From Saprospiraceae bacterium (GTDB lineage Bacteria; Bacteroidota; Bacteroidia; Chitinophagales; Saprospiraceae), in contig JAHDBI010000001.1 in NCBI GenBank assembly GCA_020630475.1, positions 182,973 to 246,972 of the forward strand: a DNA stretch of 64,000 nucleotides. The letters are read 5' to 3'. The notes below the pieces were generated by a model that was given only the letters and a program-made list of their open reading frames with translations, did not search any database and was not told the DNA's origin. Shown piece by piece: positions 8,463 through 59,430 of this stretch (positions are counted from its first letter, which is position 1; each line of letters starts with the position of its first letter). A program made the position numbers and the translations under genes.

Positions 8463-8471
8463 TTTCTGTTT

Positions 8472-30208: not shown

Positions 30209-30253
30209 TTTAAATTAATTCAAAGTTTAGTTGAAAAAAGTGTTGTGCTAAAA

Positions 30254-32959: not shown

Positions 32960-32968
32960 TAAATTTAT

Positions 32969-34171: not shown

Positions 34172-34195
34172 GAATTTAAAGTATTGGTAAAACCA

Positions 34196-35275
34196 CTACA
34201 GATTTTTCTTAATTAAATCACAAATCATTTCGATATTACTTTCCTCTAAAGTGTGATAAAGAGGTAGACAAATGATACTTTCTGCAACCTTGTCACTAAT
34301 AGGTGTTTTTTGTTTTACAACGTATTCTAAAGAAGATAGGGAGGGATAAAAGTATCTTCTCGGAAATACTTCAGCCTTATTTAAAGCTTCTATAATTGAT
34401 AGGGTAATATTTTCGTTTTCAAAGACAATAGGGAAATAGGAAAAATTATATGATGTATGATTTAGAATTTTTTGAAATGAAAGCTGATGCACGTTTTTAA
34501 GAGATTCTAAATATTGATTGTATTGTTTTTTTCGGTTTAATAAAATCTCATCAATATAATTTAAGTTGAGTAAACCCATACTTGCGTGAAATTCAGAATT
34601 TTTACCATTGATTCCTACTCCACTAAATTGTTCTGGTCCAGAATGTCCAAAATTCCTCATAGACATTAAAACATTATTAAGCTGAGTGTCTGTAGAAATC
34701 ATACCACCTCCCTCAATAGTATGGAATAATTTAGTCGCATGAAAACTTGTTGTACTTATATCACCATATTCGAAGACAGAACGATTGTGGTGAGTCACAG
34801 CAAAAGCATGGGCCGCATCGTATATTACTTTTAAGCCATGTTTATGAGCTATTTTTTCAATGGCCAAAACATTGCAAGGATTTCCAAAAACATGCGTTGC
34901 TAATATTGCTGAAGTTTCATCGGTTATCGCATCTTCTATTTTGTTTGGATCAATATTAAAACTATCCTTGTCTATATCAACAAATATTGGATCAAATCCT
35001 TCCCAAACAATACTACTTGTTGTTGCCACATATGAAAAAGGAGTGGTTATTATTTTTCGACCTTTTAGGTTTAAAGCCTTAATGGCTATTTGTATTGCGA
35101 TGGTGCCATTGCCAGTAAATAAGAAATTTTCAAGATTCAAATAATTTTTCAAATTAGCTTCTAAGGCTTTTACATTAGGACCGTTGTTTGTTAACCAGTT
35201 TCTTTCCCATATTCCATCTAAATATTGTTTATATGCTTCTTTTGGTGGCAAAAAGGGTTTTGTTACCGGGATCAT
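34196..35275 (-). CDS. DegT/WecE-type PLP aminotransferase (nucleotide 4-keto-6-deoxy-sugar transaminase-like)
   Basis: 359 aa. 'IPVTKPFLPP'. PLP lysine 'TSFHATKLFHTIEGGG'. Confidence 0.9.
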   Translation of the reverse strand: MIPVTKPFLPPKEAYKQYLDGIWERNWLTNNGPNVKALEANLKNYLNLENFLFTGNGTIAIQIAIKALNLKGRKIITTPFSYVATTSSIVWEGFDPIFVDIDKDSFNIDPNKIEDAITDETSAILATHVFGNPCNVLAIEKIAHKHGLKVIYDAAHAFAVTHHNRSVFEYGDISTTSFHATKLFHTIEGGGMISTDTQLNNVLMSMRNFGHSGPEQFSGVGINGKNSEFHASMGLLNLNYIDEILLNRKKQYNQYLESLKNVHQLSFQKILNHTSYNFSYFPIVFENENITLSIIEALNKAEVFPRRYFYPSLSSLEYVVKQKTPISDKVAESIICLPLYHTLEESNIEMICDLIKKNL

Positions 35276-38131: not shown

Positions 38132-38974
38132 TTATTTTTCACAGATTAGCAAGTAACAAAGTTCTTTTTTGTCCGTGGTCCGGAATGAAGGTGAAACAGA
38201 ATCCTTTATCTGATTATATTCTTTGATATAATCAGCTAACATTTTACGCTCTGCCTTGCTCCCTGTTTTTGTAACTTTCCAATACGGATTGTACGCAATA
38301 CATTCTACGCTTTTAAAACCTAAATCAGTACAAATGTTTTTGTAATAAGTTTTATCATATTCTGTTCGCAAAATTGAATTGGAATTAATACTTTTCTTAC
38401 CGATGATACGCTTAACAAAATGCTTTAGTATTGAAACCGGATTATATTTAATTCTTTGATGAATCGATTTTTTAAAAGGAAGTTGAGGTACAATAGGCAT
38501 AAAAGCTAAACCACCTGGAGTCAATAATCTGAGCGTCTCCTTCAAGGTTAAAGAAGGATTTTCAAAGTGTTCTAGTAAACCAATATTATAAATACAATCA
38601 AAACTAGAAGGAGCAATGTTTGTGTTTTCTACGTCCGCAAGTATCATTTTTGGTTGTGATAAGCCGTAGTGATTAAAACTATACTTGGCTACATTAAATC
38701 CCTCTTTTGCTAAATCCACCATAGTAATGTCCGTATATCCATTTTTAGATAGATACATACTGGTGGTACCTCTACCAGAACCTAATTCGCAAAAAGTAGA
38801 ATAATTTTTTCCTTCTATTAATTTTAATAAGTCATTCGCATAACCTCTCTGCCAGAATTGAAATATGGTTGTTGGAGTTTCTTCTGTATACATTTGGTTT
38901 AGTAAATCATCTTTCGATTGTTCATTCCAAATGTTGTTCCAGCCTTCGTAACTTCCTTTGTTTTTACTTTCCAT
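38132..38974 (-). CDS. Class I SAM-dependent methyltransferase
   Basis: 280 aa. Motif I 'FCELGSGRGTTSMYLSKNG'. Confidence 0.8.
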   Translation of the reverse strand: MESKNKGSYEGWNNIWNEQSKDDLLNQMYTEETPTTIFQFWQRGYANDLLKLIEGKNYSTFCELGSGRGTTSMYLSKNGYTDITMVDLAKEGFNVAKYSFNHYGLSQPKMILADVENTNIAPSSFDCIYNIGLLEHFENPSLTLKETLRLLTPGGLAFMPIVPQLPFKKSIHQRIKYNPVSILKHFVKRIIGKKSINSNSILRTEYDKTYYKNICTDLGFKSVECIAYNPYWKVTKTGSKAERKMLADYIKEYNQIKDSVSPSFRTTDKKELCYLLICEK

Positions 38975-39662
38975 TATTTTTCATTAACAAGAATTCAGCA
39001 AATTCTAGATCTAAAGGATCATTTATATCAATTGATCGTTCACGTGGCATTTTGTATCCAGAACATTTGTCCCCAATAATTCTTCCAGACTGTATTACAT
39101 GAATAGTAGAAACATAAACAGAACAATTTCTAACATATAGTTCAGGAAGTTCATGCGCGGCCATTCTTCCTTTTTCTTCCTCAATAAAAGGAAGTAAGAT
39201 ATCCTCGTGTGACAAGGTTTTCATTTTTACAGGGTGGATGGCATGGTCAAGTTTACAGACACTTACGGAAGAATCACTTTCGGTTTGAATAAGCAAGTCA
39301 ATCGTGTTATCAATATCTGCTCCTGTGGTTAAAGGAGAACTAGGTTGTATTATAACCACGAGGTCATAAGATTCTTCAAAGTTGTTAAGTGCATGTTCAA
39401 CATAAGCAATGGCCAGCGCCTTATCCCCCGAAATTTCATCAGGCCTTCTCAAAGATTCAACCTCGTTATAAGTTGACGCTATTGACAGAATCATGTCATC
39501 GTCTGAAGAAACAACAATGTGCGTTAGTAGTTTAGATTGCTTTGCCGCTTCAATGGAATAACGAACGAGTTCTTTTCCATTGAGTTTTGTTTTATTCTTA
39601 TGAGGTATTCTTTTGGATCCTCCTCGAGCTGGTATTATGCCAAGTATTTTCAAGAGAGACAA
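38964..39662 (-). CDS. neuA: Acylneuraminate (nonulosonate) cytidylyltransferase, short form
   Basis: 232 aa. 'GIIPARGGSKRIPHKN'. Confidence 0.9.
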   Translation of the reverse strand: MSLLKILGIIPARGGSKRIPHKNKTKLNGKELVRYSIEAAKQSKLLTHIVVSSDDDMILSIASTYNEVESLRRPDEISGDKALAIAYVEHALNNFEESYDLVVIIQPSSPLTTGADIDNTIDLLIQTESDSSVSVCKLDHAIHPVKMKTLSHEDILLPFIEEEKGRMAAHELPELYVRNCSVYVSTIHVIQSGRIIGDKCSGYKMPRERSIDINDPLDLEFAEFLLMKNNGK

Positions 39663-39667
39663 TAAAT

Positions 39668-40417
39668 TTACTTAAGTGTCAAAATTGAATAGTTGTTCAT
39701 ATCGCTAGCTTTCATTCTTTCTGTTTTTAAAGTCCAGTTAGAACTTGGCTTCATGTGATATTTATCTGAAATTTTTTTCTTTAAATGTGCGTATGTTGAT
39801 TTTCGATTGTCAATTAGAATGACTTTAGGATAATTAAAGTTGAGCATCTCATCCAAATCGTCCGTAAATACTTCTGCCTTAAAATCACCATCTACTAGGG
39901 TAGAAGGACCGTCAATAATTAATATGTCCAGTTGATCTTTGTAAATATCGGTATATCTAAAAACTTCAATAGGTTTTTCTTGAGACATCATTCTTTTGTT
40001 AAAGGTCATGTTTAACCTTGGACTTAAACCACCAATGCGTGAAATGATTCCTTTAGTATTTTCCATCCATTTATCTGATTCTTCAAATACAGTTACTTTT
40101 GTTTCATTGTCTTTCGACCAATGATTTAGTACGGAGGTGGTCGACCCAGAACCCAATTCTAATACAGAACTAGGTTGGTGTTTTTGGAGAATAGAATAGA
40201 TGCTTATAAGTTTATAAAGTTGAAAGTTTCGATTATATCTAAAACCTCCTCCTTTTACATATTCTTCTATTGCAAGATTAAAATAGCTCAAGGTATCTTT
40301 GTTAACCGCTTCAAAATCACGCACAATCATTTTTATCTGATTCATATTATGCTTACGCACGAAATATTCTTTGATTAAACTAGGATTTTTTAAATATCGA
40401 ATGACTGATTTAATCAT
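39668..40417 (-). CDS. Uncharacterised protein, possibly a class I methyltransferase fold
   Basis: 249 aa. 'VLELGSGSTTSVL' (motif-I-like) and 'DILIIDGP'. Weak assignment. Confidence 0.35.
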   Translation of the reverse strand: MIKSVIRYLKNPSLIKEYFVRKHNMNQIKMIVRDFEAVNKDTLSYFNLAIEEYVKGGGFRYNRNFQLYKLISIYSILQKHQPSSVLELGSGSTTSVLNHWSKDNETKVTVFEESDKWMENTKGIISRIGGLSPRLNMTFNKRMMSQEKPIEVFRYTDIYKDQLDILIIDGPSTLVDGDFKAEVFTDDLDEMLNFNYPKVILIDNRKSTYAHLKKKISDKYHMKPSSNWTLKTERMKASDMNNYSILTLK

Positions 40418-41355
40418 AACAAATTGTATAGTTTGTTTAAAATAAAAGTTTCTGTTTTCTCAAAAGACTCAAAAGTACAGCCACCTATGTGCGGGCTAAT
40501 CACTAAGTTTCTATGTTGTTGAGCGTAATGTACAAGTGGATGATCTGCTATTTCAGGTTCACCATATAAAACATCTACTGCTGCTCCGGCAATATTTCCA
40601 CTTTTTAAACAACGCAACATGCTAGCTTCATCGATCACCCCACCGCGACTTGTGTTGATAAGCCATTTTTTCGAATTGAAGTTTTTAAAAAAGGAATCAC
40701 CGTATAGATGATGTGTTGTTTTATTGTATGGAATGTGAATACTAATGATATCGGATTTTTCCACAAGTGTTTGAACGTCCGAATAAACGTGAATGTGCTC
40801 TGGACTGTCTTTAGCTTGTGTGTCAAAATACCCTACTGTAGATCCAAAGGCATGAAAATAATCTGCTACAATACGACCTAGTCTACCATAACCAATTATA
40901 CCTACAGTTTTTTTATATATTTCGTTTCCTCTAAATAAATCTCTTTGCCAACTACCTTTTAATACGTTTTGAATTGCAGGGGCAACATTTCTCATTACAG
41001 ATAAGGTGAGCAGCAAGGTGTGTTCTGCCGTTGCTCGTACTTCTTTTAAAAATTCGGTTTCACCACGAAGACAGACAATTTTAATTCCATACTTTTCACA
41101 AAGCTCTTCATCAATATGATCAATACCAGTAACTGGGGTTGCAATGAACTTACATGTAGTCTTTTCAGAAACGACTGATTCATTAATTTGGAATCCTAAT
41201 CGGAACCAGAAAACATCATAAGTTTCAAAAATATCTTTTAATTCATCTTGTTCACATTCCCCTACAGTCAAATTGAATTTCGAATTAAGTTCATTCAAGA
41301 CTTCTTGACTAAAATCTTCGGTCTCTGTTAAGAACAAATTGAGTTTTTTCTCCAA
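40414..41355 (-). CDS. D-isomer-specific 2-hydroxyacid dehydrogenase family protein
   Basis: 313 aa. 'VGIIGYGRLGRIVADYF', 'NTSRGGVIDE', 'AAVDVLYGEP', 'SPHIGG'. Confidence 0.85.
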   Translation of the reverse strand: MEKKLNLFLTETEDFSQEVLNELNSKFNLTVGECEQDELKDIFETYDVFWFRLGFQINESVVSEKTTCKFIATPVTGIDHIDEELCEKYGIKIVCLRGETEFLKEVRATAEHTLLLTLSVMRNVAPAIQNVLKGSWQRDLFRGNEIYKKTVGIIGYGRLGRIVADYFHAFGSTVGYFDTQAKDSPEHIHVYSDVQTLVEKSDIISIHIPYNKTTHHLYGDSFFKNFNSKKWLINTSRGGVIDEASMLRCLKSGNIAGAAVDVLYGEPEIADHPLVHYAQQHRNLVISPHIGGCTFESFEKTETFILNKLYNLL

Positions 41356-41356
41356 T

Positions 41357-42526
41357 CTAGTAACTTAGTTTTTTGTCAAAAGTAAGTGACACTTTTTCAA
41401 GTAGTTGTGCAATATGTTTTCCACTGTCACCTGATCCGTAAATAGGATCAGAATCATATCTACCGTGAAGAAGTTGTTTTTCTATTGCCCCTTTAATTTG
41501 AGACTCATCGTAATCAACGTCAATAGTGTTTCTCCCTCTTTCTCTTCCGCTTTGTCTTACACCAATATTAACAACAGGAATGCCTAAGTAAGAACACTCC
41601 CTAATTCCTGCACTTGAATTTCCAATTAGACATTTGGAGTTAAGTAAAAGTTTTAAAAAATCTTGCCCCTCCATGTTTTTGAAAAAATGAATAAAGTCAA
41701 TGTTATTTTTTTCTCTAAATGCCCTGATACCTTTAGAGGTTCCATCTGAACCTGCATCAACATTGGGCCAGAACCAAAATGTCGGCATTTTTAGCTGATG
41801 AATAGCATTAAGTGTTTTAGAGATGTGAATTCTTGAATTCTTATATTCTGTTGTAACTGGATGTTGTAAAACAACTAAGTAACCATTTTCCCAACCAGTG
41901 ATATTTCCAACGCCTCCATATTTTTCAAAAGGGTTAAAATCAAGTTTTGGATTTTGATTTATATGTTCTGCTAAATCAATTGAAGGACAACCGGTATTAA
42001 AAACCGTTTCCGGAAATTCACCCATTTTGATAACCCGTTCTTTTGCTTTGGCGGAAGCCACAAAATGAACATCTGAAAGTTTAGTTATGGCATGACGAAC
42101 CTTTTCGTCTATGTTTCCAGTCACTTCTCCTCCTTGAATATGTACAAGTGGAATGTTCATATAACTAGCAGCTATTGCAGTTGACATAGTCTCAAACCTA
42201 TCGGCTATTGTCACTACAGCGTCTGGATTTAGGCGTTCGAAAACAGAAGATAATTCAAGTATACCCAAGCCAGTTGTTTTCGCTTGAGCCGTTAAATCTT
42301 CTCCTTCAATAACATTTATGACTCTAGCCGCAATAGGAAAACCATCTTCTTCCATATATTTAACTGCTTTTCCATATCGGTCTAAAAGAGCGGAAGCCGC
42401 AACAACTAGTTGTAATTCTAGATGTTCGTTTTCATGAATTGCACGTAAAGCAGTTTTGATTCTGCTGTAACTTGGTCTTGCTGTAACGACAACACAGATT
42501 TTTCTTTTTTTATTCAAAGTCTTCAT
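41357..42526 (-). CDS. neuC: UDP-N-acetylglucosamine 2-epimerase, hydrolysing (NeuC/LegG type)
   Basis: 389 aa. 'ICVVVTARPSYSRIK', 'HIQGGEVTGNIDEKVRHAITKLS'. Confidence 0.9.
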   Translation of the reverse strand: MKTLNKKRKICVVVTARPSYSRIKTALRAIHENEHLELQLVVAASALLDRYGKAVKYMEEDGFPIAARVINVIEGEDLTAQAKTTGLGILELSSVFERLNPDAVVTIADRFETMSTAIAASYMNIPLVHIQGGEVTGNIDEKVRHAITKLSDVHFVASAKAKERVIKMGEFPETVFNTGCPSIDLAEHINQNPKLDFNPFEKYGGVGNITGWENGYLVVLQHPVTTEYKNSRIHISKTLNAIHQLKMPTFWFWPNVDAGSDGTSKGIRAFREKNNIDFIHFFKNMEGQDFLKLLLNSKCLIGNSSAGIRECSYLGIPVVNIGVRQSGRERGRNTIDVDYDESQIKGAIEKQLLHGRYDSDPIYGSGDSGKHIAQLLEKVSLTFDKKLSY

Positions 42527-43523
42527 CTTTTAGAAAATCATATTTCTTCTTAGCATGCTTTAATGTTTTACCAATTACGGATTTAAAACTTGAAGCATCA
42601 ATGCCAAACCCTTTTGGCTTTTTACTTTCTAAGTCATCGAAAGTTATAATATGATTAGCAGGTAGATCTTTGGAAACCGCGAGGGATTTTTCAAAGATAT
42701 TTTTTAACTCAGTATATTCTTTGTTATCCGACTTATCTATCGGGTTGTTTTTTGATTTTTCTATCGACCTAATTCCTTCTACAAGTTGGGCTATTTCGTC
42801 AATAGTCAAAGAGGATGTAGCATCAGGACCAAACATACGTTTATCGAACGTTGCATGGAATTCTAAAATATCAATCCCAATTCCGGCAGCTGCAATTCCC
42901 GCAAATATAGTTCCAGTATGTTCTGATAGGCCTATTGAACATTTAGGATATCTAGATTTTAATTCTGATATAACATTAAGGCCTAATTTTTCGTAGGGAG
43001 TAGGGTAGCTTGTGGTGCACTGAAGAATGCTTAAATCATTGCCAAACTGTTTTATAAAATTTACGGCTTCGTCTAATTCAGAAAATGAACTCATACCAGA
43101 AGACAGAATAATTGGTTTTCCAGTCTTTGCGATTTTTTCCAGCATTAAATAGTTAGTCACTTCACCTGAACCAATCTTATACCTTTTTACATTTAGTTCT
43201 TCAAGTAAATCCACAGCTGTTTGCGAAAAAGGACTAGAAAGAAATTCTAAACCAACTTGATCACAATGTTCTTTTATTCCAAACCAAGCTTCTTTGGAAA
43301 AGGACATTCTTTTCCAATAATCAAATCGAGTTTTGTCTTCATAAGAGAATTTAACTCGAAAGGGCTCATGAATACTACTTTCGGCTTCTGCTATGTGAGT
43401 TTGGAATTTTATTGCATCTACACCAGTCGCAGCTAATGCATCAATAAATGAATGCAAAATCCCCAAACTACCTTCGTGTGCTTGGCCAATTTCCGCAATA
43501 ATAAAAACGTTCGAATTAGACAT
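42510..43523 (-). CDS. neuB: N-acetylneuraminate (nonulosonate) synthase
   Basis: 337 aa. 'FIIAEIGQAHEGS'. C-terminal SAF-like 'LAVSKDLPANHIITFDDL'. Confidence 0.9.
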   Translation of the reverse strand: MSNSNVFIIAEIGQAHEGSLGILHSFIDALAATGVDAIKFQTHIAEAESSIHEPFRVKFSYEDKTRFDYWKRMSFSKEAWFGIKEHCDQVGLEFLSSPFSQTAVDLLEELNVKRYKIGSGEVTNYLMLEKIAKTGKPIILSSGMSSFSELDEAVNFIKQFGNDLSILQCTTSYPTPYEKLGLNVISELKSRYPKCSIGLSEHTGTIFAGIAAAGIGIDILEFHATFDKRMFGPDATSSLTIDEIAQLVEGIRSIEKSKNNPIDKSDNKEYTELKNIFEKSLAVSKDLPANHIITFDDLESKKPKGFGIDASSFKSVIGKTLKHAKKKYDFLKDEDFE

Positions 43524-44484: not shown

Positions 44485-45786
44485 TTAGAGCCTTCCGTCT
44501 ACATCCTTTTTAGGAAGTATACTTTTTACATCGTATAAAATACCATCCTCATTTAAATAAGACCGCATATCCATATTTAGAAAATCTTTATGTGCTACAG
44601 TCAAAACTATCGCATCATAATCATTGTCTAAGGATTCAATATCATTTGTACAAGCAATGTTAAATTCTCTCTTTACTTCATTTTCGTTTGCCCAAGGATC
44701 GAAAAGCGTTAAATCAACACCATAAGATATAAGCTCATTATAGACATCAATTGCTCTTGTGTTTCTTATGTCTGGACAGTTTTCTTTAAAGGTTATACCT
44801 AGTGCCAAAATTTTAGCTCCATTGATTTTAATTTCTCTTTTAATCATTAGTTTGATTACTTCACTAGCAACGAAACTACCCATACCATCATTTAATCGTC
44901 TACCAGCCAAAATGATTTCAGGATGATAGCCTACTTCTTGAGCTTTTTGGGCTAAGTAGTATGGATCTACACCGATGCAATGTCCACCAACTAAACCTGG
45001 ACGAAATGGAAGGAAATTCCACTTTGTCCCAGCGGCTTCTAGAACCTCTAATGTATCAATATCCATTTTGTTGAATATTTTTGAAAGTTCATTAACAAAG
45101 GCTATGTTGATATCTCTTTGACTATTTTCAATAACCTTAGCAGCCTCAGCTACTTTTAAAGAAGATGCTTTGTATGTGCCAGCAGTAATGACGCTTTTAT
45201 ATATCTGATCGATTATTTCTGCAGATTCTTCCGTAGAACCGGAAGTTACTTTTAGAATTTTAGTCACTGTATGGTTTTTGTCGCCAGGATTTATTCTTTC
45301 AGGACTATAACCAACATAGAAATCAGCATTGAACGTTAATCCAGAGTGTTTTTCTAAAACTGGAATGCATTCATCTTCTGTTGCTCCAGGATAAACAGTT
45401 GATTCATAAACAACGAAATCACCTTTTTTTAAGACACTACCCACAGTTTCACTTGCTTTTTTTAATGGGGTAAGAACGGGTCTATTGTTTTTATCCGTAG
45501 GTGTAGGTACTGTAATAATGTAGAAGTTACACGCATTAAGTGATTCGGGATTTGTAGAAATTAATAATCCATTCTTATCTAACTCATCATGCGTGTTTTC
45601 TTGTTTTTTTAACACTGACTTTAGGTGTTCATCTTCAACCTCTAAAGTGGAATCTTGTCCAGAAATTAATTCTTTAACACGACGTTCATTTATATCAAAG
45701 CCAACTGTAGGATATTTTTTACCAAACTCTACGGCCAATGGTAATCCAACATAACCTAATCCTATTATTCCAATTTTATAATTCAT
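44485..45786 (-). CDS. UDP-N-acetylhexosamine 6-dehydrogenase (TviB/WbpO/WbpA/CapL type)
   Basis: 433 aa. '[17 protein letters not shown]'. Catalytic Cys '[13 protein letters not shown]'. Confidence 0.9.
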
Positions 45787-46655
45787 TAATTTGCCTTTAC
45801 TATGTCCAATAAATATTTCCCATAACCACTTTTCACAAGATCATTACCCAATACTTCCAATTGAGCCTTGTCTATATAACCCATATGGAAGGCTACCTCT
45901 TCAATACAACCTATTTTATGACTTTGTCTTTTTTCAATTACTCGAACAAACTCTGAGGCATCATGTAAAGAGTCAAAAGTACCAGTATCTAACCAAGCGG
46001 TACCTCTGGTCATTACACCTACAGAAAGTTTTTGTTCATTTAAGTAATGCGCGTTGACCGTTGTTATTTCATATTCGCCTCTAGCAGAGAGTGGTATGTT
46101 TTTAGCAATTTCAACAACCTTGTTGTCATAGTAATAAAGCCCAGGAACTGCATAGTTACTTTTAGGTTGTTTTGGTTTTTCTTCTATGGTAATGGCTTTT
46201 TGATTTTCATCGAATTCAACAACACCATATCGTTCTGGATCTTTTACTGGATAAGCAAATATTTTTGCTCCATCCGTTATAGTAGCGCTGTTTTTTAGAA
46301 GCTTTGACAAGCCAGCACCGTAGAATATATTGTCACCCAAGATTAGTGCAACGGAATCATTTCCGATAAATTTTTCACCTATAACAAAAGCTTGCGCAAG
46401 TCCGTTTGGAACTTCTTGCACTTCATAGTGAAATTCACAACCTAAACTTTCACCAGACCCTAAAAGTCTCTTGAATTGTGATTGATCTTCTGGTGTAGTA
46501 ATGATTAGTATCTCTCGAATTCCAGATAACATTAGAATTGACAATGGATAATAAATCATTGGTTTGTCATAGATCGGCATCAACTGCTTACTAATAGCTT
46601 TAGTAATAGGATACAGTCTTGAACCAGAACCACCCGCTAAAATTATTCCCTTCAT
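45786..46655 (-). CDS. rfbA: Glucose-1-phosphate thymidylyltransferase
   Basis: 289 aa. '[39 protein letters not shown]'. Confidence 0.95.
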
Positions 46656-46657
46656 AA

Positions 46658-47917
46658 TTAAATTATCATTCCGGCCGCAACCGTATTGTTATTACTTTCA
46701 TCAACAAGGATAACACTGCCCGTAATTCGATTTTGATTATACTCATCAAAAAACAAGGGTAGGGTAGTACGAATAGAAACTCTTGCAATGTCATTAGAAT
46801 TAATGGAAAAATCTTCCTGAATTCTATGTAGTGAATTAATGTCTAGTTTGTAATGTATTTCTTTAACAATACACCGTGCCTCCTTAGTCGTCTGACGTAT
46901 GGTATATTTTCCATTCTCCTTTAAGGGTTTAGTATGATCAAACCAACAAAGCATCACATCTAAATCTTGTTCCACTCTTGGTTTATTGTTTACACGAACA
47001 AGCATATCACCTCTACTGATATCAATATCATCTTCCAACAAAATGGTGACAGACTGAGGTGGAAACGCCGCCTCAAGTTCTTCTTTATAACAAGTTATGG
47101 ATGATATTTTAGAAGTAAACCCACTTGGTAAAGCCATAACTTCATCTCCTTTTTTAAATACACCTCCTGAAACTCTACCAGCATATCCTCTATAATCATG
47201 AAATTCGTCGTTGTAAGGTCGTATAACATATTGGACAGGAAATCTACAATCAATGAAGTTGTGATCACTTGATATATGAACATTCTCTAGATAGTACATT
47301 AAGGTACTTCCTTCGTACCAACTCATGTTTTCACTTCTGTTAACCACATTATCACCTTTGAGGGCGGATATAGGAATAAAGCTTACATCCTTTACATCTA
47401 GTTTAGAGGTAAAAGATTCAAAATCTTTTCGAATGCTTTCAAATACCTCTTTATTATACTCGACTAAGTCCATTTTATTTACACACACAACGATATGTGG
47501 AATTTGTAAAAGAGAAGCGATTATGGCGTGCCTTTTAGTTTGTTCAATTATTCCTTGACGAGAATCAACTAGAAGTAATGCAACATTTGCTGTAGAAGCA
47601 CCTGTAACCATATTTCTAGTGTATTGAATATGTCCAGGCGTATCTGCAATAATAAATTTTCTTTTAGGTGTGCTAAAGTATCGGTATGCAACATCAATGG
47701 TTATCCCTTGTTCTCTTTCTGCCTTTAAGCCATCCGTTAAAAGTGCCAAGTTGACTTCACTTTCTCCACGTCTTGCACTGATGTCTTCAATTTGTTTAAA
47801 TTGATCTTGAAATATTGATTTACTATCATAGAGTAACCTACCTATTAAAGTTGATTTACCATCATCAACTGAACCGGCTGTAGTAAATCGAAGGAGTTCT
47901 GTGCTTTTAGAATTCAT
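46658..47917 (-). CDS. cysN: Sulfate adenylyltransferase subunit 1 (GTPase), not fused to an APS kinase
   Basis: 419 aa. G1 '[15 protein letters not shown]', G3 'DTPGH', G4 'NKMD'. Confidence 0.95.
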
Positions 47918-47992
47918 ATATATACGCTATTTGAAAAACGGTTAAAGGATTTTCGCGAAAGCGAAATTATCAATAGTCATAAAAAGTAAGGC

Positions 47993-48898
47993 CTAGAAAT
48001 ATCCTTGTTTTTTTCTATCCTCCATGGAAGTCTCACTTCTTTTATCATCTGCCCTTCCTCCTCTTTCGGTCATTCTTGTTGTTGAAACTTCAGTTATAAT
48101 ATCTTCTATTTTACTGGCCGATGAGCGCCAAACACCTGTACATGTTACATCCCCAATCGTTCTACAACGTACGGTTTCTTTAAAAGCTTTTTCATCGGGT
48201 TTTTTCTGAATGAATTCAGAATCAGCTAACAGAATTCCATCTCTTTCAATAACCATTCTTTCGTGAGCAAAGTAAAGGTTTGGCAGAGGCACTTTTTCCA
48301 TGGCTAAGTATTGCCAAACGTCTAATTCTGTCCAGTTCGAAATTGGGAAAACCCTAAAATGTTCACCCATATTTTTTCTTGTATTGAATAAATTCCAAAG
48401 CTCTGGTCTTTGGTTTTTTGGGTCCCATTGTCCAAACTCATCTCGATGAGAAAAGAATCGTTCTTTTGCCCTAGCTTTTTCCTCATCTCTTCTAGCACCA
48501 CCCATAGCAGCATCATACTTTCCTTTTTCTAATTCGTCTAATAGGGTAAACGTTTGAAGACCATTTCTACTGGCGTTTACACCTTTCTCTTCATTAACCT
48601 GACCACTATCGATAGCATCTTGAACGTAACCAACTTTTAAATTGAGCTGATACTCCTTTACTAGATCATCTCTAAACTTAATTGTCTCTTCAAAATTATG
48701 CCCGGTGTCAATATGTAAAAGCGGAAAAGGAACTTTAGCTGGGTAAAAGGCTTTGACAGCCAAGTGTGTCATAAGTATAGAATCTTTTCCACCGGAAAAG
48801 AGAATCACAGGATTTTCGAATTGTGCAGCAACTTCTCTTAAAACAAAAATGGATTCACTTTCTAATTCCTTTAAGTGATCAATATTATAATTAATCAT
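47993..48898 (-). CDS. cysD: Sulfate adenylyltransferase subunit 2
   Basis: 301 aa. PP-loop 'ILFSGGKDSILM'. C-terminal '...RKKQGYF'. Confidence 0.95.
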   Translation of the reverse strand: MINYNIDHLKELESESIFVLREVAAQFENPVILFSGGKDSILMTHLAVKAFYPAKVPFPLLHIDTGHNFEETIKFRDDLVKEYQLNLKVGYVQDAIDSGQVNEEKGVNASRNGLQTFTLLDELEKGKYDAAMGGARRDEEKARAKERFFSHRDEFGQWDPKNQRPELWNLFNTRKNMGEHFRVFPISNWTELDVWQYLAMEKVPLPNLYFAHERMVIERDGILLADSEFIQKKPDEKAFKETVRCRTIGDVTCTGVWRSSASKIEDIITEVSTTRMTERGGRADDKRSETSMEDRKKQGYF

Positions 48899-48904
48899 AA
48901 ATTT

Positions 48905-49483
48905 CTATTTAGTAATAAATTCAAAAAGTAAGTTGGCACTAGCTTCTATAGTATGATTTTCTGTGCTAATTTCTAAGCTCGGATTAGTAGGTGCTTCAAA
49001 AGGGGATGATATACCAGTAAAATCTTTAATGTCCCCTTTCCTGGCTTTTTTATAAAGACCTTTCACATCTCTATTTTCGCAAGTTTCTAAAGAAGCATTG
49101 ATAAAAATTTCATAAAAGTCAGATTGAATAATTTCTTTAGCCTTATTTCTAAGTTCAATGGTTGGACTAACAAAACAACAAATCACAATGATACCTGTTT
49201 CTTTAAAGAGTTTTGCTATTTCAGAAACTCGTCTAATGTTTTCATAACGGTCTTCTAAATTAAAAGCTAAATCATTATTTATACCTGAACGTATATTGTC
49301 TCCATCAAGAACCTTTACTAGGTGCCCTTTGTCATATAATAATTGTTCTACTAATTTTGCTAAGGTGCTTTTACCTGAACCAGATAATCCAGTTAACCAA
49401 TAAACACCAGCTTTTTGGTTTAGTAGTTTTTCTTGATCTTTTTGCGATAAGAGTTGATCAAAATTAGGATGAATATTATTCAT
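48905..49483 (-). CDS. cysC: Adenylyl-sulfate (APS) kinase
   Basis: 192 aa. P-loop 'YWLTGLSGSGKSTLA', 'LDGDNIR'. Confidence 0.95.
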   Translation of the reverse strand: MNNIHPNFDQLLSQKDQEKLLNQKAGVYWLTGLSGSGKSTLAKLVEQLLYDKGHLVKVLDGDNIRSGINNDLAFNLEDRYENIRRVSEIAKLFKETGIIVICCFVSPTIELRNKAKEIIQSDFYEIFINASLETCENRDVKGLYKKARKGDIKDFTGISSPFEAPTNPSLEISTENHTIEASANLLFEFITK

Positions 49484-49489
49484 GTTGGT

Positions 49490-50794
49490 TTAATTTCTAC
49501 CGATACTAGAATACTCAAAACCTGAATTTTTGACAATGTTAGAATCATAAAGATTTCTACCATCAAAAATAACGTGCTGTTTCATTTGCGATTTCATTTG
49601 CGTGAAATCTGGAGTTCTAAATGTTGACCATTCAGTACAGATTAGAAGAGCGTCCGCGTTTTCTAGTGCTTCATATTGGTTTTTGGCATAAGAAATCTTG
49701 TCTTTGTACAGTTCTTTTACGTTTTTCATTGCCTCAGGGTCAAAAACTTGAACCCTAGCTCCGTGTTCAAGTAATTTGTCTATCGTGTATAAAGAAGGCG
49801 CTTCTCTAATATCATCGGTATTTGGTTTAAAGGCTAATCCCCAAATCGCAATAGTTTTGTCATTTAGATCGCCGTTAAATTTGTTTAGCACTCTATCGGC
49901 AAGTATGATTTTTTGATTTTGATTTACCTCCATAACTGACTTAAGGATATTGAATGGATAGTCATTCTCTTGAGCAGTTTTATACAGGGCTTTTACATCC
50001 TTTGGAAAACATGATCCGCCATATCCAATTCCAGGAAACAAAAATCTTTTGCCAATTCTAGAATCACTGCCAATTCCTTTTCTTACCATGTCGACATTAG
50101 CATCAACCTTTTCACAAAGGTTTGCAATTTCATTCATGAAAGTAATTTTAGTTGCTAGGAATGCATTCGCTGCGTACTTAGTCATTTCGGCAGAACGTTC
50201 ATCCATGACAATTATCGGATTTCCTTGTCTAACGAAAGGTTTATACAATCGCATCATGAGTTTTTCTGCCTTTTCAGAATTAGTACCTATTACGATTCTG
50301 TCCGGTTTCATAAAGTCATCTACTGCTACGCCTTCTCTTAAAAATTCAGGATTAGACACGACATCAAATAAAGATTCATCTAGATTTTTTGCAAGTACTT
50401 GATGAACTTTATTAGCGGTACCTACAGGCACTGTACTCTTATCTACTATAACCTTGTAATCAGTAATAAGATGAGACAGCTCATCCGCTACGGATAAAAC
50501 GAAACTTAAATCAGCAGATCCGTCTGCTCCTGGAGGTGTGGGAAGTGCTAAGAAAATAATTTCAGCATCCTTTACAGCATCAGGTAAAGAAGTCGTGAAT
50601 TTTAAACGACCAGATTTAGTGTTTCTATCAAACAGTATATTTAGACCAGGTTCGAAAATAGGTATATGCCCATCGCACATTAATTCTACCTTTTGTTTGT
50701 CTATATCTACACAAGTTACATTATTACCGGTTTCTGAAAAACATGTTCCAGTAACTAATCCAACGTATCCTGTTCCAACTACGGCAATTTTCAT
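49490..50794 (-). CDS. ugd: UDP-glucose 6-dehydrogenase
   Basis: 434 aa. 'MKIAVVGTGYVGLVTG'. Catalytic Cys 'GGSCFPKD'. Confidence 0.95.
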   Translation of the reverse strand: MKIAVVGTGYVGLVTGTCFSETGNNVTCVDIDKQKVELMCDGHIPIFEPGLNILFDRNTKSGRLKFTTSLPDAVKDAEIIFLALPTPPGADGSADLSFVLSVADELSHLITDYKVIVDKSTVPVGTANKVHQVLAKNLDESLFDVVSNPEFLREGVAVDDFMKPDRIVIGTNSEKAEKLMMRLYKPFVRQGNPIIVMDERSAEMTKYAANAFLATKITFMNEIANLCEKVDANVDMVRKGIGSDSRIGKRFLFPGIGYGGSCFPKDVKALYKTAQENDYPFNILKSVMEVNQNQKIILADRVLNKFNGDLNDKTIAIWGLAFKPNTDDIREAPSLYTIDKLLEHGARVQVFDPEAMKNVKELYKDKISYAKNQYEALENADALLICTEWSTFRTPDFTQMKSQMKQHVIFDGRNLYDSNIVKNSGFEYSSIGRN

Positions 50795-50799
50795 TTTTT

Positions 50800-51870
50800 T
50801 TATTTTAATGCGTCTCTGTATATTTTTCTAATGACAATAAAACCTATTGAAATAAATAGGCCTAAAAACAATCCCATTATTGTTGTTTTTAAGATGTTAA
50901 ATCGACGTCGGTTTAATGGTGAAAAAGGTTTATCGATAATTTGTAAATAAGGGGTTTTATATTTTAAGGCAAAATCTGCCATCTCTAAACTTTCCATTGC
51001 TTTTGCTAATCCAGCATACATCAAAGTAACTTGTCGACTTAGTTGTTGACTTTTTATTTTATCCTCATTTCTAATAAGATTGTTTGAGCTATCAGTATAT
51101 CTAGCTAATCTCATTTCTGTATTATGGAGTTCTCTTTTTAAGGAATCAGTCCGAGCTTGAATTACATTATAATTTAATAATTCTCCTTCAATTGTTTTTT
51201 GGATATAAAAAGAATCCAATTGATGAAAAATATGTTCTGCTAATTTTATTGATAACTGTTCATTAATGCCTATAACCATTATTTCGAAGATTCCAGTAGA
51301 TTCATCATATTGAGATTTATATATGGCCTCTTCATTTTTGTTACCTAATAGTTTACCGTACAATGTTTTTAATGCAGAATTAGTTTTTCGATCAAAACGC
51401 TCTACATCATTAGATGTAAATTTAAATTTGTTTTTACCTAAATCACTTTCTTCCCAGGTTGTACCATGAAGGTCATAGAGCTCTATAATATGGTTAGCAA
51501 ATAAATCTTCTTTTTTATTCAAACTCACAGAATCCAATAATACTTTATGTAAGATGTTTTGACTTTCTGAAAGCTTGATTAATTTCTCAGCATTAAAGTC
51601 CCCGGTTTGACCTAAGCCAAAGCTTCCCATTAAACTAGAAAGTGAACCACCACCAGAAGCGTCCGATTGATGAAGCATATAGCTTAAAGTGGCAATGTAG
51701 GATCTTTCTTTTGTGTAGTTTTTATAAAAGATAAATAGCCATGCAAGGAGTAATATTAAAATTATTGTCTTCCACGACCTGAGAATCTCAAACCAAAATT
51801 CGTGAATTTTAAGGATTAAATCCTTTAATGATATTTCGTCCGAAAAGGTATCTTTTGAATCAGAATTCAT
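50800..51870 (-). CDS. wzz: Wzz-like polysaccharide co-polymerase / chain-length determinant, no kinase domain
   Basis: 356 aa. N-terminal TM 'WKTIILILLLAWLFIF', long helical middle, C-terminal TM 'IMGLFLGLFISIGFIVI'. No Walker A. Confidence 0.75.
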   Translation of the reverse strand: MNSDSKDTFSDEISLKDLILKIHEFWFEILRSWKTIILILLLAWLFIFYKNYTKERSYIATLSYMLHQSDASGGGSLSSLMGSFGLGQTGDFNAEKLIKLSESQNILHKVLLDSVSLNKKEDLFANHIIELYDLHGTTWEESDLGKNKFKFTSNDVERFDRKTNSALKTLYGKLLGNKNEEAIYKSQYDESTGIFEIMVIGINEQLSIKLAEHIFHQLDSFYIQKTIEGELLNYNVIQARTDSLKRELHNTEMRLARYTDSSNNLIRNEDKIKSQQLSRQVTLMYAGLAKAMESLEMADFALKYKTPYLQIIDKPFSPLNRRRFNILKTTIMGLFLGLFISIGFIVIRKIYRDALK

Positions 51871-55608: not shown

Positions 55609-56163
55609 TTACGCCAATTGTTTTGTCACAAGGGGTCTTAAAAAGACCTTATTTAATTCGATTCTTAGTTGAAGACCTAATGAAGGTATTTCAACAATGA
55701 ATTCATTTTTATTCTTTTTCTCTATCAATTTTCCAGTCAAACCGGTCAAATTTCCATGAACAATTTCAACGGGTTGTCCTACATCAAAATTTCTTTCTTC
55801 TACAAACACGTCTTGGAATTCACCTACTACATGTTTCAGTAAATTCATTTCTTCTTGAGGAATACAGATTAGGGAGTTTCCAATTTTCAGAAAACTATAG
55901 ACGTGCAAGGTTTTTAAAACAGACACATACTCGGATTCTAAAATCCTAACAAAAACAAAGGAATGAATAATTGGCTTTGAAACGATTTTGCGTTTGTGTG
56001 TATATTCTTTAACTGTTTCAAGAATGGGTACGTAGGCATCTATTCCTTGTCTAATTAGTCTTTCACAAACTAACTTTTCACATTTATATTTTACTTTAAC
56101 CGCAAACCATCTTTTCTCAGAGATAGAAAGTCCAAGGGAAGAATTTAACTCATCACAGCTCAT
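55609..56163 (-). CDS. UpxY-family (NusG-like) transcription antiterminator
   Basis: 184 aa. NGN-like 'RWFAVKVKYKCEKLVCERLIRQGIDAYVP'. KOW 'GQPVEIVHGNLTGLTGKLIE'. Start overlaps the upstream stop (ATGA). Confidence 0.85.
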   Translation of the reverse strand: MSCDELNSSLGLSISEKRWFAVKVKYKCEKLVCERLIRQGIDAYVPILETVKEYTHKRKIVSKPIIHSFVFVRILESEYVSVLKTLHVYSFLKIGNSLICIPQEEMNLLKHVVGEFQDVFVEERNFDVGQPVEIVHGNLTGLTGKLIEKKNKNEFIVEIPSLGLQLRIELNKVFLRPLVTKQLA

Positions 56164-56699
56164 TTATCATCGTTTTTCCAGAGTAGTAAATTCTTTCCAT
56201 CAGTAGAATCTAGATATGATTCTGCTTCTGAAGATGATTTATAATGAAGGTATCTTAATTTTCTTTTGATTAATTTTTCAACCTTAGCAACTAATTCAAT
56301 GAGATAGTTTTTGTCAATATCTCCAACAAAGATTAGATCAATGATTGGGCTATCTTTTCCAAGAGCAAAGTCTCCTGTGATATATACTTTTTTAACACTA
56401 CCTAGTCTTTTGATTACATTCTCTATAATCTGATCGAAGCCTAAATATTTTAAAACAATACTATTGACTTCAGCATAAAGAGGATGGGCGGTATTCGCTT
56501 TAAAAAACTTCTTATTTCCAACAAAATGAGTTTTAAGCATTCCTGCTTTTTCAAAACGATTAAGCTCTATACGAATTGAATTAGTTGATTCACCAAACTC
56601 ACTTTCTAAACCGCGGAGATATGCAGAGGCATTGCTATTTAAAAAGAACTTTAAAAGCAATTTAATCCTTGTTTTACTTGAAATCAGCGTTTCTATCAT
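56160..56699 (-). CDS. Winged-helix (ArsR-like) regulator with a nucleotidyltransferase-like C-terminal half
   Basis: 179 aa. 'YLRGLESEFGESTNSIRIELNRFEKAGML'. C-terminal 'VYITGDFALGKDSPIIDLIFVGD'. Confidence 0.65.
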   Translation of the reverse strand: MIETLISSKTRIKLLLKFFLNSNASAYLRGLESEFGESTNSIRIELNRFEKAGMLKTHFVGNKKFFKANTAHPLYAEVNSIVLKYLGFDQIIENVIKRLGSVKKVYITGDFALGKDSPIIDLIFVGDIDKNYLIELVAKVEKLIKRKLRYLHYKSSSEAESYLDSTDGKNLLLWKNDDK

Positions 56700-56732: not shown

Positions 56733-59420
56733 CTAGTCAATTCTTTGAACTAAAATTATTAGAGATAAAATGGCGGTTGTTTGAGCAATAGAATCTGAAA
56801 TCAGTTTCCCCCAATCTGTAGATTCTCTTTCAGAATGTTCCTTTACAGGCTTTTCTTCTTTGGCTCCAATTCTAATCGTCGAGCCAGGTTTAATTTCTGG
56901 ATAGCTTCTCCAAAAAAGAAATCTTCTAGATGATTTTACTTCTCCAGTAGCATATGTAACCGTGATTTTGCCTTTATCTCCATTTTCTGCAATACCTCCA
57001 GCATAATCTCGAATGTATGAAGTTGCACTTTTATTTTTTTCAAAGGCTACATTTATTTTACCTTGCTTTACAATATCAGAATTATATAATTCATTTATTC
57101 TTGTAGCTCCTTCTATCGTTACAAGATCATTGGATTTCGGGATATTTATTATATCCCCATCCTTCAAAATAACATTAAAAGATGATTCATTATTTTTTAA
57201 TGCTTTTTCTAGATTAATAATAACATAACCAGCGTCATCCATATTTCTATAAAGCGTTACGCCCTGAGAAAATGCTTCGTCAGTCAAACCACCTGCTCTA
57301 CGTAAAATGTTCACAATTTTTTCATTGTCTTGAATAAGTGCATAAGAACCTGCAAACTGTACTTCCCCTTGAATTGTCACCACTTTTTGAAATTCAAACT
57401 CAGGTGCAGTTCTCACAAACACCTGATCATAAGGATTTAGAGTAAATTCTTCTTCACCAAATAATTCAAAGTTTTTATCAATTTGAACAGATGCAGCCAG
57501 CGTTTTGCTTTTTTTCTTATCATCAAAATCTAGTCTATATACATCAATTCGATATGGTGCAGATTCTAATTTTAAACCACCTGATAGGGTAAGAAGATCT
57601 TTAAGTCTTAATGATTCGTCATATTTGAATTGCCCTGGATTTCTCACAGCACCACCAATAGTTACAAAAGAATCATCTAAAAAGTCCGTTTTAGAATAGA
57701 TTTGAAGAATATCTTTATTTTCCATTTTTGGCAGATTGTTCTTATCATTTAAGTCGACACGGATATATTCTAGCTTCCCTACCTCATTGTACCTTTTAAT
57801 GTATGCAAACTCTGTAGCTTCATCTTTTAAGCCACCGGCTAAGTAGATAGCTTGATCTACAGTTATAGATCCATTAGAGTCCATGGAAAATGAATTTGGT
57901 TCTCTAACCTCTCCTTCTACAGAAAAACTTTCGGCATCTGTATATCTGGATTTCTTATATATAATTAATTCATCTTCGGGAAAGAGAATTAAGTTGTCAA
58001 TGTCGTTAATGTTAGCTTTTACATTGTCAAGGTTTACAAAAAAATACCGAAATTTTTCGAGGTTGTCCTCTTTACGCTTAACATAGGCAAGTGAAGACAG
58101 GGCATTTCGATCAAGCTTAACCTTTTTTAAGATATCAGAAATTTTAGTATTACTACTTATCGAATATCTTCCAGGAATATCTACAGCTCCGGTGATTGTG
58201 ATAAAATTGTGGTAAGCATTCGGAATTGACTCTACTTTTATAATATCTCCATCGTATAGTGTGTACGATTTTGACGAATTAAGTAATGACTGTAAATTGA
58301 TATCTTCAATTAATTCTTCATCGTTAAGAAATCTTTTTATCTGTACATTTCGTTTTATAGCATTACTTTTTAATCCACCAGCAAAATCAATTAACTTTTT
58401 TAAATGTTCTCCGTCTCTTAATTCGTAGTAAAATGGTCTTTTGACTGCTCCACTTATCTCAACGAGCTTGCCACTTACCGGAACGTTAATAATATCATTC
58501 TCCATTAAGTATAAATCAGTTGAGAATTCTGGGTTTAACAAATATTCATAGATATCTATAATTCTAACTTGTTCCCCAGGTCGTATTAGCTGAATGTTTC
58601 TTACTGACCCAATATTAGTTGGACCACCAGCGGTGATCAAAGCATTAAAAATATTGTTTAAACCAGATAGATTGAAGCTCCCATAATTTTCGACTTCCCC
58701 AACTATATTTACATTAATTGTTCTTGCCTTAGAAATAGTTACATCAAATTCTCCTTTTCTGAATACGTAATATTCTCTATAAATTTTTGCTAATTTTTCT
58801 TTAGCTACCTCAAGGGATAATCCTTTAAGGAATATCCTTGTAGAATTACTTAAAGCGATAGAACCATCAGATTTAATTTCGTGCGATTCGTTTAGTTGAG
58901 AACGTCCCCAAATGGAAACAGAAATAATATCTCCTGTACCTAAAGTATAACTTTTCGGAACGTTTATTTCACTGCTCTTCTCGAAAAAACTAGCATCCTT
59001 AGACTTAAAAATATGTTGACCAAAAATTTTGGATTTTTGTGCATTATCCTGTTGTTCATCATCTACAACATCCACTTTTACTTCAACCGTTTCAGCACCA
59101 TTTGCAACATCCTCTACTTGAGGAGTTAAGGGAAGTGTATCTAAAGGTTCTATACTCGCTTTCCTTTCAGCGTCTATTTCTGCTAGAACCTCATTAAAAG
59201 CTTTTTCAGCCGCAATGACTTCTTCTGGATTATTTGGGTTGACTTGGTCTAAATCGATCCCTTTTAATAAAAGCCTTCGCTTTACCTCAACTTCTTCTAT
59301 GCCTCGTTCTTTTATTTCGTCTATTGCTTTTTGTTCTTCTGAGATTTGTCCAATTGTAATAGCTTGAAAACAAAAGAGCATGACAGATGTCAGAATTATA
59401 AGTCGAAAAATATTTCTCAT
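56733..59420 (-). CDS. wza: Wza-type outer-membrane polysaccharide export protein with multiple SLBB domains
   Basis: ATG 59420 gives signal peptide 'MRNIFRLIILTSVMLFCFQAITIG'. The tracked GTG at 59486 would overlap metH. Poly_export-like 'YTLGTGDIISVSIWG'. At least 6 SLBB-like repeats ('GEVENYGSF', 'GAVKRPFYYEL', 'GAVDIPGRYSI', 'GEVREPNSF', 'GAVRNPGQFKY', 'GEVQFAGSYAL'). C-terminal hydrophobic helix. Confidence 0.85.
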   Translation of the reverse strand: MRNIFRLIILTSVMLFCFQAITIGQISEEQKAIDEIKERGIEEVEVKRRLLLKGIDLDQVNPNNPEEVIAAEKAFNEVLAEIDAERKASIEPLDTLPLTPQVEDVANGAETVEVKVDVVDDEQQDNAQKSKIFGQHIFKSKDASFFEKSSEINVPKSYTLGTGDIISVSIWGRSQLNESHEIKSDGSIALSNSTRIFLKGLSLEVAKEKLAKIYREYYVFRKGEFDVTISKARTINVNIVGEVENYGSFNLSGLNNIFNALITAGGPTNIGSVRNIQLIRPGEQVRIIDIYEYLLNPEFSTDLYLMENDIINVPVSGKLVEISGAVKRPFYYELRDGEHLKKLIDFAGGLKSNAIKRNVQIKRFLNDEELIEDINLQSLLNSSKSYTLYDGDIIKVESIPNAYHNFITITGAVDIPGRYSISSNTKISDILKKVKLDRNALSSLAYVKRKEDNLEKFRYFFVNLDNVKANINDIDNLILFPEDELIIYKKSRYTDAESFSVEGEVREPNSFSMDSNGSITVDQAIYLAGGLKDEATEFAYIKRYNEVGKLEYIRVDLNDKNNLPKMENKDILQIYSKTDFLDDSFVTIGGAVRNPGQFKYDESLRLKDLLTLSGGLKLESAPYRIDVYRLDFDDKKKSKTLAASVQIDKNFELFGEEEFTLNPYDQVFVRTAPEFEFQKVVTIQGEVQFAGSYALIQDNEKIVNILRRAGGLTDEAFSQGVTLYRNMDDAGYVIINLEKALKNNESSFNVILKDGDIINIPKSNDLVTIEGATRINELYNSDIVKQGKINVAFEKNKSATSYIRDYAGGIAENGDKGKITVTYATGEVKSSRRFLFWRSYPEIKPGSTIRIGAKEEKPVKEHSERESTDWGKLISDSIAQTTAILSLIILVQRID

Positions 59421-59430
59421 TTTAAAAAAA

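Follow-up and report, generated by a model that had tools for sequence, protein, structure and literature searches.

We describe here three sulfate-activation genes, cysC, cysD and cysN, that lie inside a polysaccharide locus of a Saprospiraceae bacterium (GenBank assembly GCA_020630475.1, contig JAHDBI010000001.1, positions 182,973 to 246,972; this whole stretch of 64,000 nucleotides (nt) is called the window, and coordinates count from its first letter). All three are read from the minus strand. cysC (48905-49483) encodes an adenosine 5′-phosphosulfate (APS) kinase of 192 amino acids (aa) (TIGR00455, 221.7 bits against a cut-off of 138.7; PF01583, 201 bits), cysD (47993-48898) encodes the 301-aa small subunit of ATP sulfurylase (TIGR02039, 425.1 against 396.6; NF009214, 427.5 against 413), and cysN (46658-47917) encodes its 419-aa GTPase subunit (TIGR02034, 550.9 bits against 336.1). 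Directly upstream of cysC stands ugd, a UDP-glucose 6-dehydrogenase gene (49490-50794, minus strand; TIGR03026, 461.5 bits; three UDPG_MGDP_dh domains), and directly downstream of cysN stands rfbA, a glucose-1-phosphate thymidylyltransferase gene (45786-46655, minus strand; TIGR01207, 466.5 bits against 360.65). The gaps are 6 nt between ugd and cysC, 6 nt between cysC and cysD, 75 nt between cysD and cysN and 2 nt between cysN and rfbA. Open reading frame (ORF) calls and hidden Markov model (HMM) scores place the three genes exactly where an earlier reading made without database searches (the sequence-only reading) had located them, co-oriented and tightly packed between these flanks. The CysC translation keeps both the P-loop GLSGSGKST and the LDGDN motif, CysD keeps the PP-loop SGGKDS, and CysN keeps the G1, G3 and G4 motifs, NKMD among them; according to Pfam, CysN consists of GTP_EFTU and GTP-eEF1A_C domains only, with no fused APS-kinase domain. 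All three genes are intact and are predicted to be functional, with active products.

The same strand carries three sulfotransferase genes downstream, as the sequence-only reading had also stated, and their Pfam matches are accompanied in all three cases by an intact 5′-phosphosulfate-binding (5′-PSB) and 3′-phosphate-binding (3′-PB) motif for 3′-phosphoadenosine 5′-phosphosulfate (PAPS), which donates the sulfuryl group. ST1 (29393-30208, minus strand) is a PAPS-dependent sulfotransferase of 271 aa (PF00685, 79.9 bits; PF13469, 64.9 bits) with GMPRSGTSW as 5′-PSB and VRNPLGCISS as 3′-PB motif. ST2 (21623-22456, minus strand) is of the same kind, with 277 aa (PF00685, 52.7 bits; PF13469, 44.1 bits) and the motifs GCQRSGTSM and YRHYRDVAAS, and ST3 (18267-19034, minus strand) is a 255-aa protein of the Sulfotransfer_2 type with the motifs NKCGGTT and FREPISRYMS; of the three it is assigned most weakly (PF03567, 35.4 bits against a cut-off of 22). 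In the database, ST1 (P0011) is listed with 259 aa and a start 12 codons after the first ATG of its reading frame; the 271-aa start is more plausible because the shorter one loses the IWICG strand ahead of the PAPS-binding loop.

These genes belong to a co-oriented polysaccharide array of 53 ORFs that covers about 59 kb of the minus strand (147-59486; ORF calls and family assignments) and may run past the low end of the window. The GC content of the window is about 34%. Every real ORF of 120 aa or more is read from the minus strand of the window, and the 55 of them were scanned for families with Pfam or NCBIfam; two plus-strand ORFs each lie wholly within a minus-strand gene. The window has 54 inter-ORF gaps, 52 of them inside the array; none is larger than 75 nt, and all but 6 measure 30 nt or less. 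Read in the direction of transcription, the region begins with a weak Wzi-like gene, metH, the gene of a Wza-type outer-membrane polysaccharide export protein (56733-59486, minus strand; 917 aa as listed, start uncertain; Poly_export and SLBB domains, EpsE-like at 132 bits), a gene for a 179-aa protein and the gene of a UpxY-family transcription antiterminator (55609-56163, minus strand; NF033644, 123.8 bits against a cut-off of 100), which stands at the array head, 6.1 kb upstream of cysC. An antiterminator gene at the 5′ end with all downstream genes co-oriented at small gaps is the layout of UpxY-type capsule loci of Bacteroidota. There follow a dTDP-sugar set (rfbB, aminotransferase, acetyltransferase, oxidoreductase), a probable Wzz-like or polysaccharide co-polymerase-like chain-length protein (50800-51870, minus strand; 356 aa), ugd, cysC, cysD, cysN and rfbA. 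The chain-length protein matches its families weakly (BexC/CtrB/KpsE at 27 bits, chain-length determinant at 20 bits) and has counterparts after Wza in relatives.

After rfbA come tviB-like and tviC-like genes, a nonulosonic-acid pathway (neuB, neuC, cytidylyltransferase) and a Wzx flippase (35272-36723, minus strand; Polysacc_synt_3, 283.6 bits), and then a block of DegT, ATP-grasp, methyltransferase, CysM-like and GHMP-kinase genes, ST1, glycosyltransferases and a Wzy-type polymerase (24914-26209, minus strand; Wzy_C, 35.7 bits against a cut-off of 31.7). The remainder consists of an AsnB-like amidotransferase, an acetyltransferase, ST2, more glycosyltransferases, ST3, a methyltransferase, a second AsnB-like amidotransferase, a heparinase II/III-like protein and an initiating phospho-sugar transferase (3491-4168, minus strand; Bac_transf, 182.3 bits), beyond which wecB-like, manC-like and GT1 genes reach the low end. 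As in clusters for sulfated capsular polysaccharide (CPS) or exopolysaccharide (EPS), PAPS-synthesis and sulfotransferase genes stand together with assembly and export genes in this one locus, which has cysCDN, three sulfotransferases, Wzx, Wzy, Wza, an initiating transferase and many glycosyltransferases.

Genes of assimilatory sulfate reduction are lacking here. Among the 55 minus-strand ORFs no cysH-like or sulfite-reductase family was found, and CysD alone is a PAPS_reduct protein (Pfam and NCBIfam). A second screen, with phmmer and a sequence pattern, detected neither a PAPS_reduct paralogue nor a NIR_SIR motif, either in the window or within 10 kb of cysN in any of the 80 related loci introduced below, the NIR_SIR pattern being the weaker half of this screen. 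An assimilatory operon, in which cysH and a sulfite reductase are linked to cysDN, is thus not what surrounds these genes, and the absence of cysH, cysI and cysJ from the window had been correctly noted in the sequence-only reading. An Rfam scan of the window matched no family, sulfur-responsive riboswitches included.

The placement of cysCDN was followed through the Bacteroidota with a set of 80 species-representative loci collected by a CysN search (cysN with 10 kb on either side), whose genes were labelled from called ORFs, BLAST against the window proteins and Pfam scans of cluster representatives; individual loci are cited below by number. The closest CysN relatives, 67-79% identical, come from Saprospiraceae, other Chitinophagales, Cytophagales and Flavobacteriales. 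cysC, cysD and cysN stand together in 68 of the 80 loci, and 27 loci, among them 11 of the 15 closest, carry at least two co-oriented homologues of the polysaccharide genes of the window. A CysQ-type protein of the inositol-monophosphatase family, which is a phosphatase for 3′-phosphoadenosine 5′-phosphate (PAP), is encoded in 26 loci and directly adjacent in 17, a CitMHS/SLC13-type permease in 6, and related Flavobacteriales loci carry both. A Sulfotransfer_1 or Sulfotransfer_3 gene was seen in 8 loci, a count that is an underestimate, given flanks of 10 kb against a distance of 16.5 kb between cysN and ST1 in the window. In L003, L004, L008 and L020 the order is a homologue of the 179-aa protein, a UpxY-like gene, cysC, cysD and cysN; cysC is separated from the UpxY-like gene by a 101-aa ORF in L014 and by four genes in L002. 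The Cyclobacteriaceae order is rfb/tviB genes, cysCDN, cysQ and Wza. Since the same placement is found in many related genomes, it is not a chance local oddity: in this part of the Bacteroidota a cysC-first operon repeatedly lies in or heads capsule-type loci, often with a PAP-recycling enzyme.

A search from the side of ST1 leads to PAPS genes as well. ST1 has 68 homologues with 32-52% identity, and PAPS genes lie within 10 kb of the homologue in three of the four loci inspected (L086, L089 and L091). L086 (ST1 identity 51%) has essentially the architecture of the window, with the order ugd, DUF2061, cysC, cysD, cysN, rfbB, rfbA, DegT, acetyltransferase, PAPS_reduct-domain protein, ATP-grasp, methyltransferase, sulfotransferase, Wzx and a second sulfotransferase, and its ATP-grasp-methyltransferase-sulfotransferase block (7729-10810) lies about 4.5 kb downstream of the run from ugd to rfbA. 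L089 (41%) contains a sulfate permease, cysQ, cysD, a fused cysNC, DegT, WbqC, methyltransferase, sulfotransferase, Wzx and two more sulfotransferases. L091, from an Acidobacteria metagenome-assembled genome (MAG) (GCA_016195325.1, 9273-15603; 45%), has methyltransferase, sulfotransferase, WbqC, DegT and GT2 genes followed by a Sat/APS-kinase fusion, a PAPS synthase that replaces cysDN and cysC non-orthologously, its ATP sulfurylase being non-homologous. The occurrence of such a fusion in this position speaks for PAPS supply as the function under selection. In L088 (45%) no PAPS genes lie within 10 kb.

Two observations concern the composition of these loci. The PAPS_reduct-domain protein of L086 (7002-7679) has 225 aa, a CysH-like size, and is encoded between the acetyltransferase gene and the block with the ST1 homologue; the CysM-like enzyme and GHMP kinase that separate the methyltransferase gene from ST1 in the window are missing from the corresponding point of L086, and the PAPS_reduct-domain gene lies about 4.2 kb upstream of that point. 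The sulfation module of L089 holds two toxin-antitoxin pairs (2895-3454 and 5624-6038), ParE/Phd between cysD and cysNC and HicA/HicB just past cysNC. ST2 has 564 homologues. Its block of Wzy, AsnB, acetyltransferase (Hexapep) and ST2 is conserved in L095, a Bacteroidota MAG whose locus contains three sulfotransferases and in which the heparinase II/III-like gene, next to GT4, recurs further downstream, and in L094 (Maribacter) four sulfotransferases adjoin two UDP-sugar dehydrogenases.

ST1 closes a cassette of six genes, the other five being those for a DegT aminotransferase, an ATP-grasp enzyme, a methyltransferase, a CysM-like enzyme dependent on pyridoxal phosphate (PLP) and a GHMP kinase (30254-35275, minus strand; Pfam, NCBIfam). 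The whole cassette (29393-35275) recurs in L092 (6836-12618) in the same order and with 44-66% identity, within an unrelated glycan locus of the ABC-transporter type, and L086 keeps the order ATP-grasp, methyltransferase, sulfotransferase, its DegT homologue standing at another point of the locus. The CysM-like enzyme (31162-32067) has CysM as its closest PDB entry (139 bits) and 919 homologues at E ≤ 1e-20; its family is large and always paired with a GHMP kinase (the pair occupies 30254-32067 in the window), and the same pair lies inside a nonribosomal peptide synthetase (NRPS) cluster of Chryseobacterium gallinarum (L093, 10001-11757; CP050995). This gene was considered as a housekeeping cysteine synthase, or as part of an assimilation cluster with cysCDN and metH, and was rejected as such, since it scores far below the CysK/CysM cut-offs; the constant pairing with a GHMP kinase and the recurrence in the glycan cassette of L092 and in the NRPS cluster of L093 also rule this out. 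Most likely the product of the CysM-like enzyme is a non-proteinogenic amino acid, to be joined to a sugar by the ATP-grasp enzyme, and the pair suggests a two-enzyme route, e.g., kinase-activated serine or homoserine followed by β- or γ-replacement. Together the six genes probably build a methylated, sulfated aminoacyl amino-sugar decoration.

The best explanation for this arrangement, to which we assign a probability of about 0.78, is that the locus encodes its own PAPS supply for the sulfation of its polysaccharide. CysD and CysN would convert sulfate and ATP to APS, with GTP hydrolysis as the drive, and CysC would phosphorylate APS to PAPS. ST1, ST2 and ST3 would then transfer sulfate from PAPS to the repeat unit or to its side groups on the cytoplasmic side, after which Wzx would flip, Wzy polymerise and Wza export the sulfated product, and the PAP left behind would be removed by a CysQ encoded outside the window. 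The three genes would be co-transcribed with the UpxY-controlled locus of the Wzx/Wzy/Wza type. A link between CysDN, CysC and polymer sulfation had been suggested in the sequence-only reading, and it is now supported by intact genes in a UpxY-headed array, by the PAPS-binding motifs of the sulfotransferases, by the conserved arrangement and by the loci of the ST1 homologues. The further suggestion of that reading, a supply dedicated to sulfation and not to assimilation, would imply that a second, housekeeping set is encoded elsewhere in the genome.

Several observations weigh against this explanation, and most of them bear on another, in which cysCDN would be the sole sulfate-activation set of the cell and serve mainly cysteine and methionine synthesis through a cysH and sulfite reductase located elsewhere, its place in the locus being inherited and the sulfotransferases drawing on a general PAPS pool. 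The nearest sulfotransferase gene, ST1, is 16.5 kb away from cysN, and 38 of the 80 related loci show no visible association of cysCDN with a polysaccharide, sulfotransferase or cysQ gene within 10 kb. A fully self-contained sulfation module often has both cysQ and a sulfate permease; the window has neither a CysQ-like protein nor a CitMHS/SLC13-type permease, according to tblastn with the related-locus proteins and the lack of any Inositol_P or CitMHS match. The same region is headed by metH, which encodes a full-length cobalamin-dependent MetH of 1192 aa (59431-63009, minus strand) and sits between the gene with the weak Wzi match and that of the Wza exporter, with no cobalamin or S-adenosylmethionine (SAM) riboswitch detected. 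metH is also found near cysCDN or Wza in the Saprospiraceae loci L005, L007, L019, L028 and L031, and a Cys_Met_Meta_PP enzyme adjoins cysDN in Phaeodactylibacter (L013, L018), so that the placement of cysCDN could in part be inherited synteny with sulfur-amino-acid genes. Moreover, no record occurs twice among the 80 species-representative loci, which means that no genome among them showed a second close copy. A role in assimilation is nonetheless unlikely to be the main one, as neither the window nor the 10-kb surroundings of its 80 relatives contain a cysH-like gene or a sulfite-reductase motif, no sulfur-responsive riboswitch was found in the window, and in several relatives cysCDN follows directly behind the capsule antiterminator gene. 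cysC, moreover, is kept and comes first in the operon; APS kinase is required for PAPS and is dispensable where sulfur assimilation runs via APS reductase. The non-orthologous PAPS synthase in the equivalent place beside the same sulfotransferase family in L091 likewise speaks against a merely inherited position. If cysCDN also feeds assimilation, this does not contradict a role in sulfation.

Slightly less probable still is that PAPS is made here but sulfate goes mainly to an acceptor other than the backbone of a capsule or EPS, either an amino-acid or other side group made by the DegT/ATP-grasp/methyltransferase/CysM-like/GHMP-kinase cassette, or a protein or lipid O-glycan. The position of ST1 at the end of a cassette conserved in L092 would fit such an acceptor, as would the presence of the PLP-enzyme/kinase pair in an NRPS cluster, and the best NCBIfam match of Wzx is an O-glycosylation flippase, below its cut-off. 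However, ST2 and ST3 lie away from the cassette, among glycosyltransferases, Wzy and amidotransferases, and Wzy, Wza and the Wzz-like protein point to an exported polymer.

The proposed PAPS supply for sulfation of the locus polysaccharide can be compared with known systems. Rhizobial NodP and NodQ, together with NodH, are a case of locus-linked sulfate activation, providing PAPS for a secreted glycoconjugate, a lipo-chitooligosaccharide; NodQ is a CysN-CysC fusion, and NodPQ is an extra copy, often plasmid-borne. The sequence-only reading had likened the three genes to NodPQ, and the likeness holds for function, since sulfate activation is linked to sulfotransferases in a glycoconjugate cluster in both, but not for architecture: in the window cysC stands by itself, upstream of cysD, and CysN is unfused. 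The Synechan (xss) cluster for a sulfated EPS in Synechocystis PCC 6803 is reportedly of the Wzx/Wzy type with dedicated sulfotransferases, as is the present locus, in a host of another phylum. NodH is mentioned in PMC11625862.

The closest published parallels are CPS clusters of two Gammaproteobacteria. In Vibrio sp. KMM 8419 the cluster contains second copies of cysC, cysN and cysD together with three sulfotransferases, the CPS structure has been solved and is sulfated, and the authors called PAPS genes with sulfotransferases in a CPS cluster a hallmark of sulfated polysaccharide synthesis (PMC11641403). The cluster of Cobetia marina KMM 1449 carries cysNC, cysD, cysQ and a sulfate permease, and its polymer is chemically proven to be sulfated (PMC11766843). 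These systems share with the window PAPS-synthesis genes inside a polysaccharide cluster with up to three sulfotransferases. They differ in that export is by an ABC transporter (Kps), whereas the Bacteroidota locus is of the Wzx/Wzy/Wza type with a UpxY antiterminator, and the fused cysNC, cysQ and sulfate permease of Cobetia all lack counterparts in the window. The Vibrio and Cobetia polymers are chemically proven to be sulfated, and the Vibrio PAPS genes are described as a second copy; for the window, sulfation of the polymer is predicted from its genes. Within the same phylum, Bacteroides thetaiotaomicron has a PAPS cluster, BT_0411-BT_0415, beside the sulfotransferase gene BT_0416 (PMC9417993). 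There, too, the PAPS set adjoins a PAPS-dependent sulfotransferase and not cysH or a sulfite reductase, but the acceptors are cholesterol and other steroids instead of a polysaccharide, and a sulfate importer is included that is absent from the window. Furthermore, a putative cluster for a sulfated glycosaminoglycan in Pontiella contains a methyltransferase-sulfotransferase-VioA trio (PMC7356697), which resembles the methyltransferase-sulfotransferase-DegT surroundings of the ST1 family.

Embedded PAPS genes as a mark of polymer sulfation are therefore a principle already established in other bacteria, and sulfated capsules with a defined genetic basis, which had been described as few in the sequence-only reading, turn out to be less rare, as PAPS genes with sulfotransferases in CPS clusters with solved sulfated structures have been published (PMC11641403, PMC11766843). 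No described sulfated-capsule gene cluster for Bacteroidota was found in the searchable literature, and in a metagenomic survey of a mat the Bacteroidetes MAGs were reported to lack sulfotransferase genes (PMC9723792). What this locus adds is an arrangement that recurs in Saprospiraceae and Cyclobacteriaceae. Marine and environmental Bacteroidota are usually regarded as consumers, not producers, of sulfated glycans. We tentatively raise the broader possibility, which we hold to be rather less than even, that sulfated capsules or EPS are common lineage-wide in these Bacteroidota (Saprospiraceae, Cyclobacteriaceae and some Flavobacteriales), with cysC-cysD-cysN as a core part of the antiterminator-controlled operon and the ST1 cassette building an undescribed sulfated, methylated aminoacyl amino-sugar decoration. 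The locus would offer a concrete genetic blueprint for a sulfated polysaccharide in Bacteroidota, its recurrence bears on the question of which organisms produce sulfated EPS in marine particles, mats and biofilms, and ST1, ST2 and ST3 are candidate polysaccharide sulfotransferases for biotechnology.

Other genes of the array hint at the chemistry of its product. The synthase, the hydrolysing epimerase and the cytidylyltransferase of the nonulosonic-acid pathway (38964-43523, minus strand) resemble NeuB, NeuC and PseF, respectively, and score below the equivalog cut-offs; embedded in the pathway are a D-2-hydroxyacid dehydrogenase and a 249-aa protein without a known family. The two AsnB-like glutamine amidotransferases suggest amidated uronic acids, and the array also encodes, in addition to the heparinase II/III-like protein, a 698-aa fusion of a zinc-ADH-like and a GFO/IDH/MocA oxidoreductase; the regions listed for these amidotransferase, heparinase-like and fusion genes are 8472-12387, 15217-17121 and 23025-24926, all on the minus strand. 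In a scan for regulatory sites with a tool that has no promoter model for Bacteroidota, 65 promoter-like sites were counted against 62.8 expected, and the terminator-like sites of the minus strand were all intragenic, with none in an intergenic gap on that strand. The 179-aa protein near the array head (56160-56699, minus strand) matches no Pfam or NCBIfam family, and its gene lies directly upstream of the UpxY gene and overlaps it. Its homologues form a cluster of eight members, five of which are paired with a UpxY-like gene, and by BLAST labels the two genes are adjacent in 7 related loci with 55-66% identity; the protein may be a partner or regulator of UpxY.

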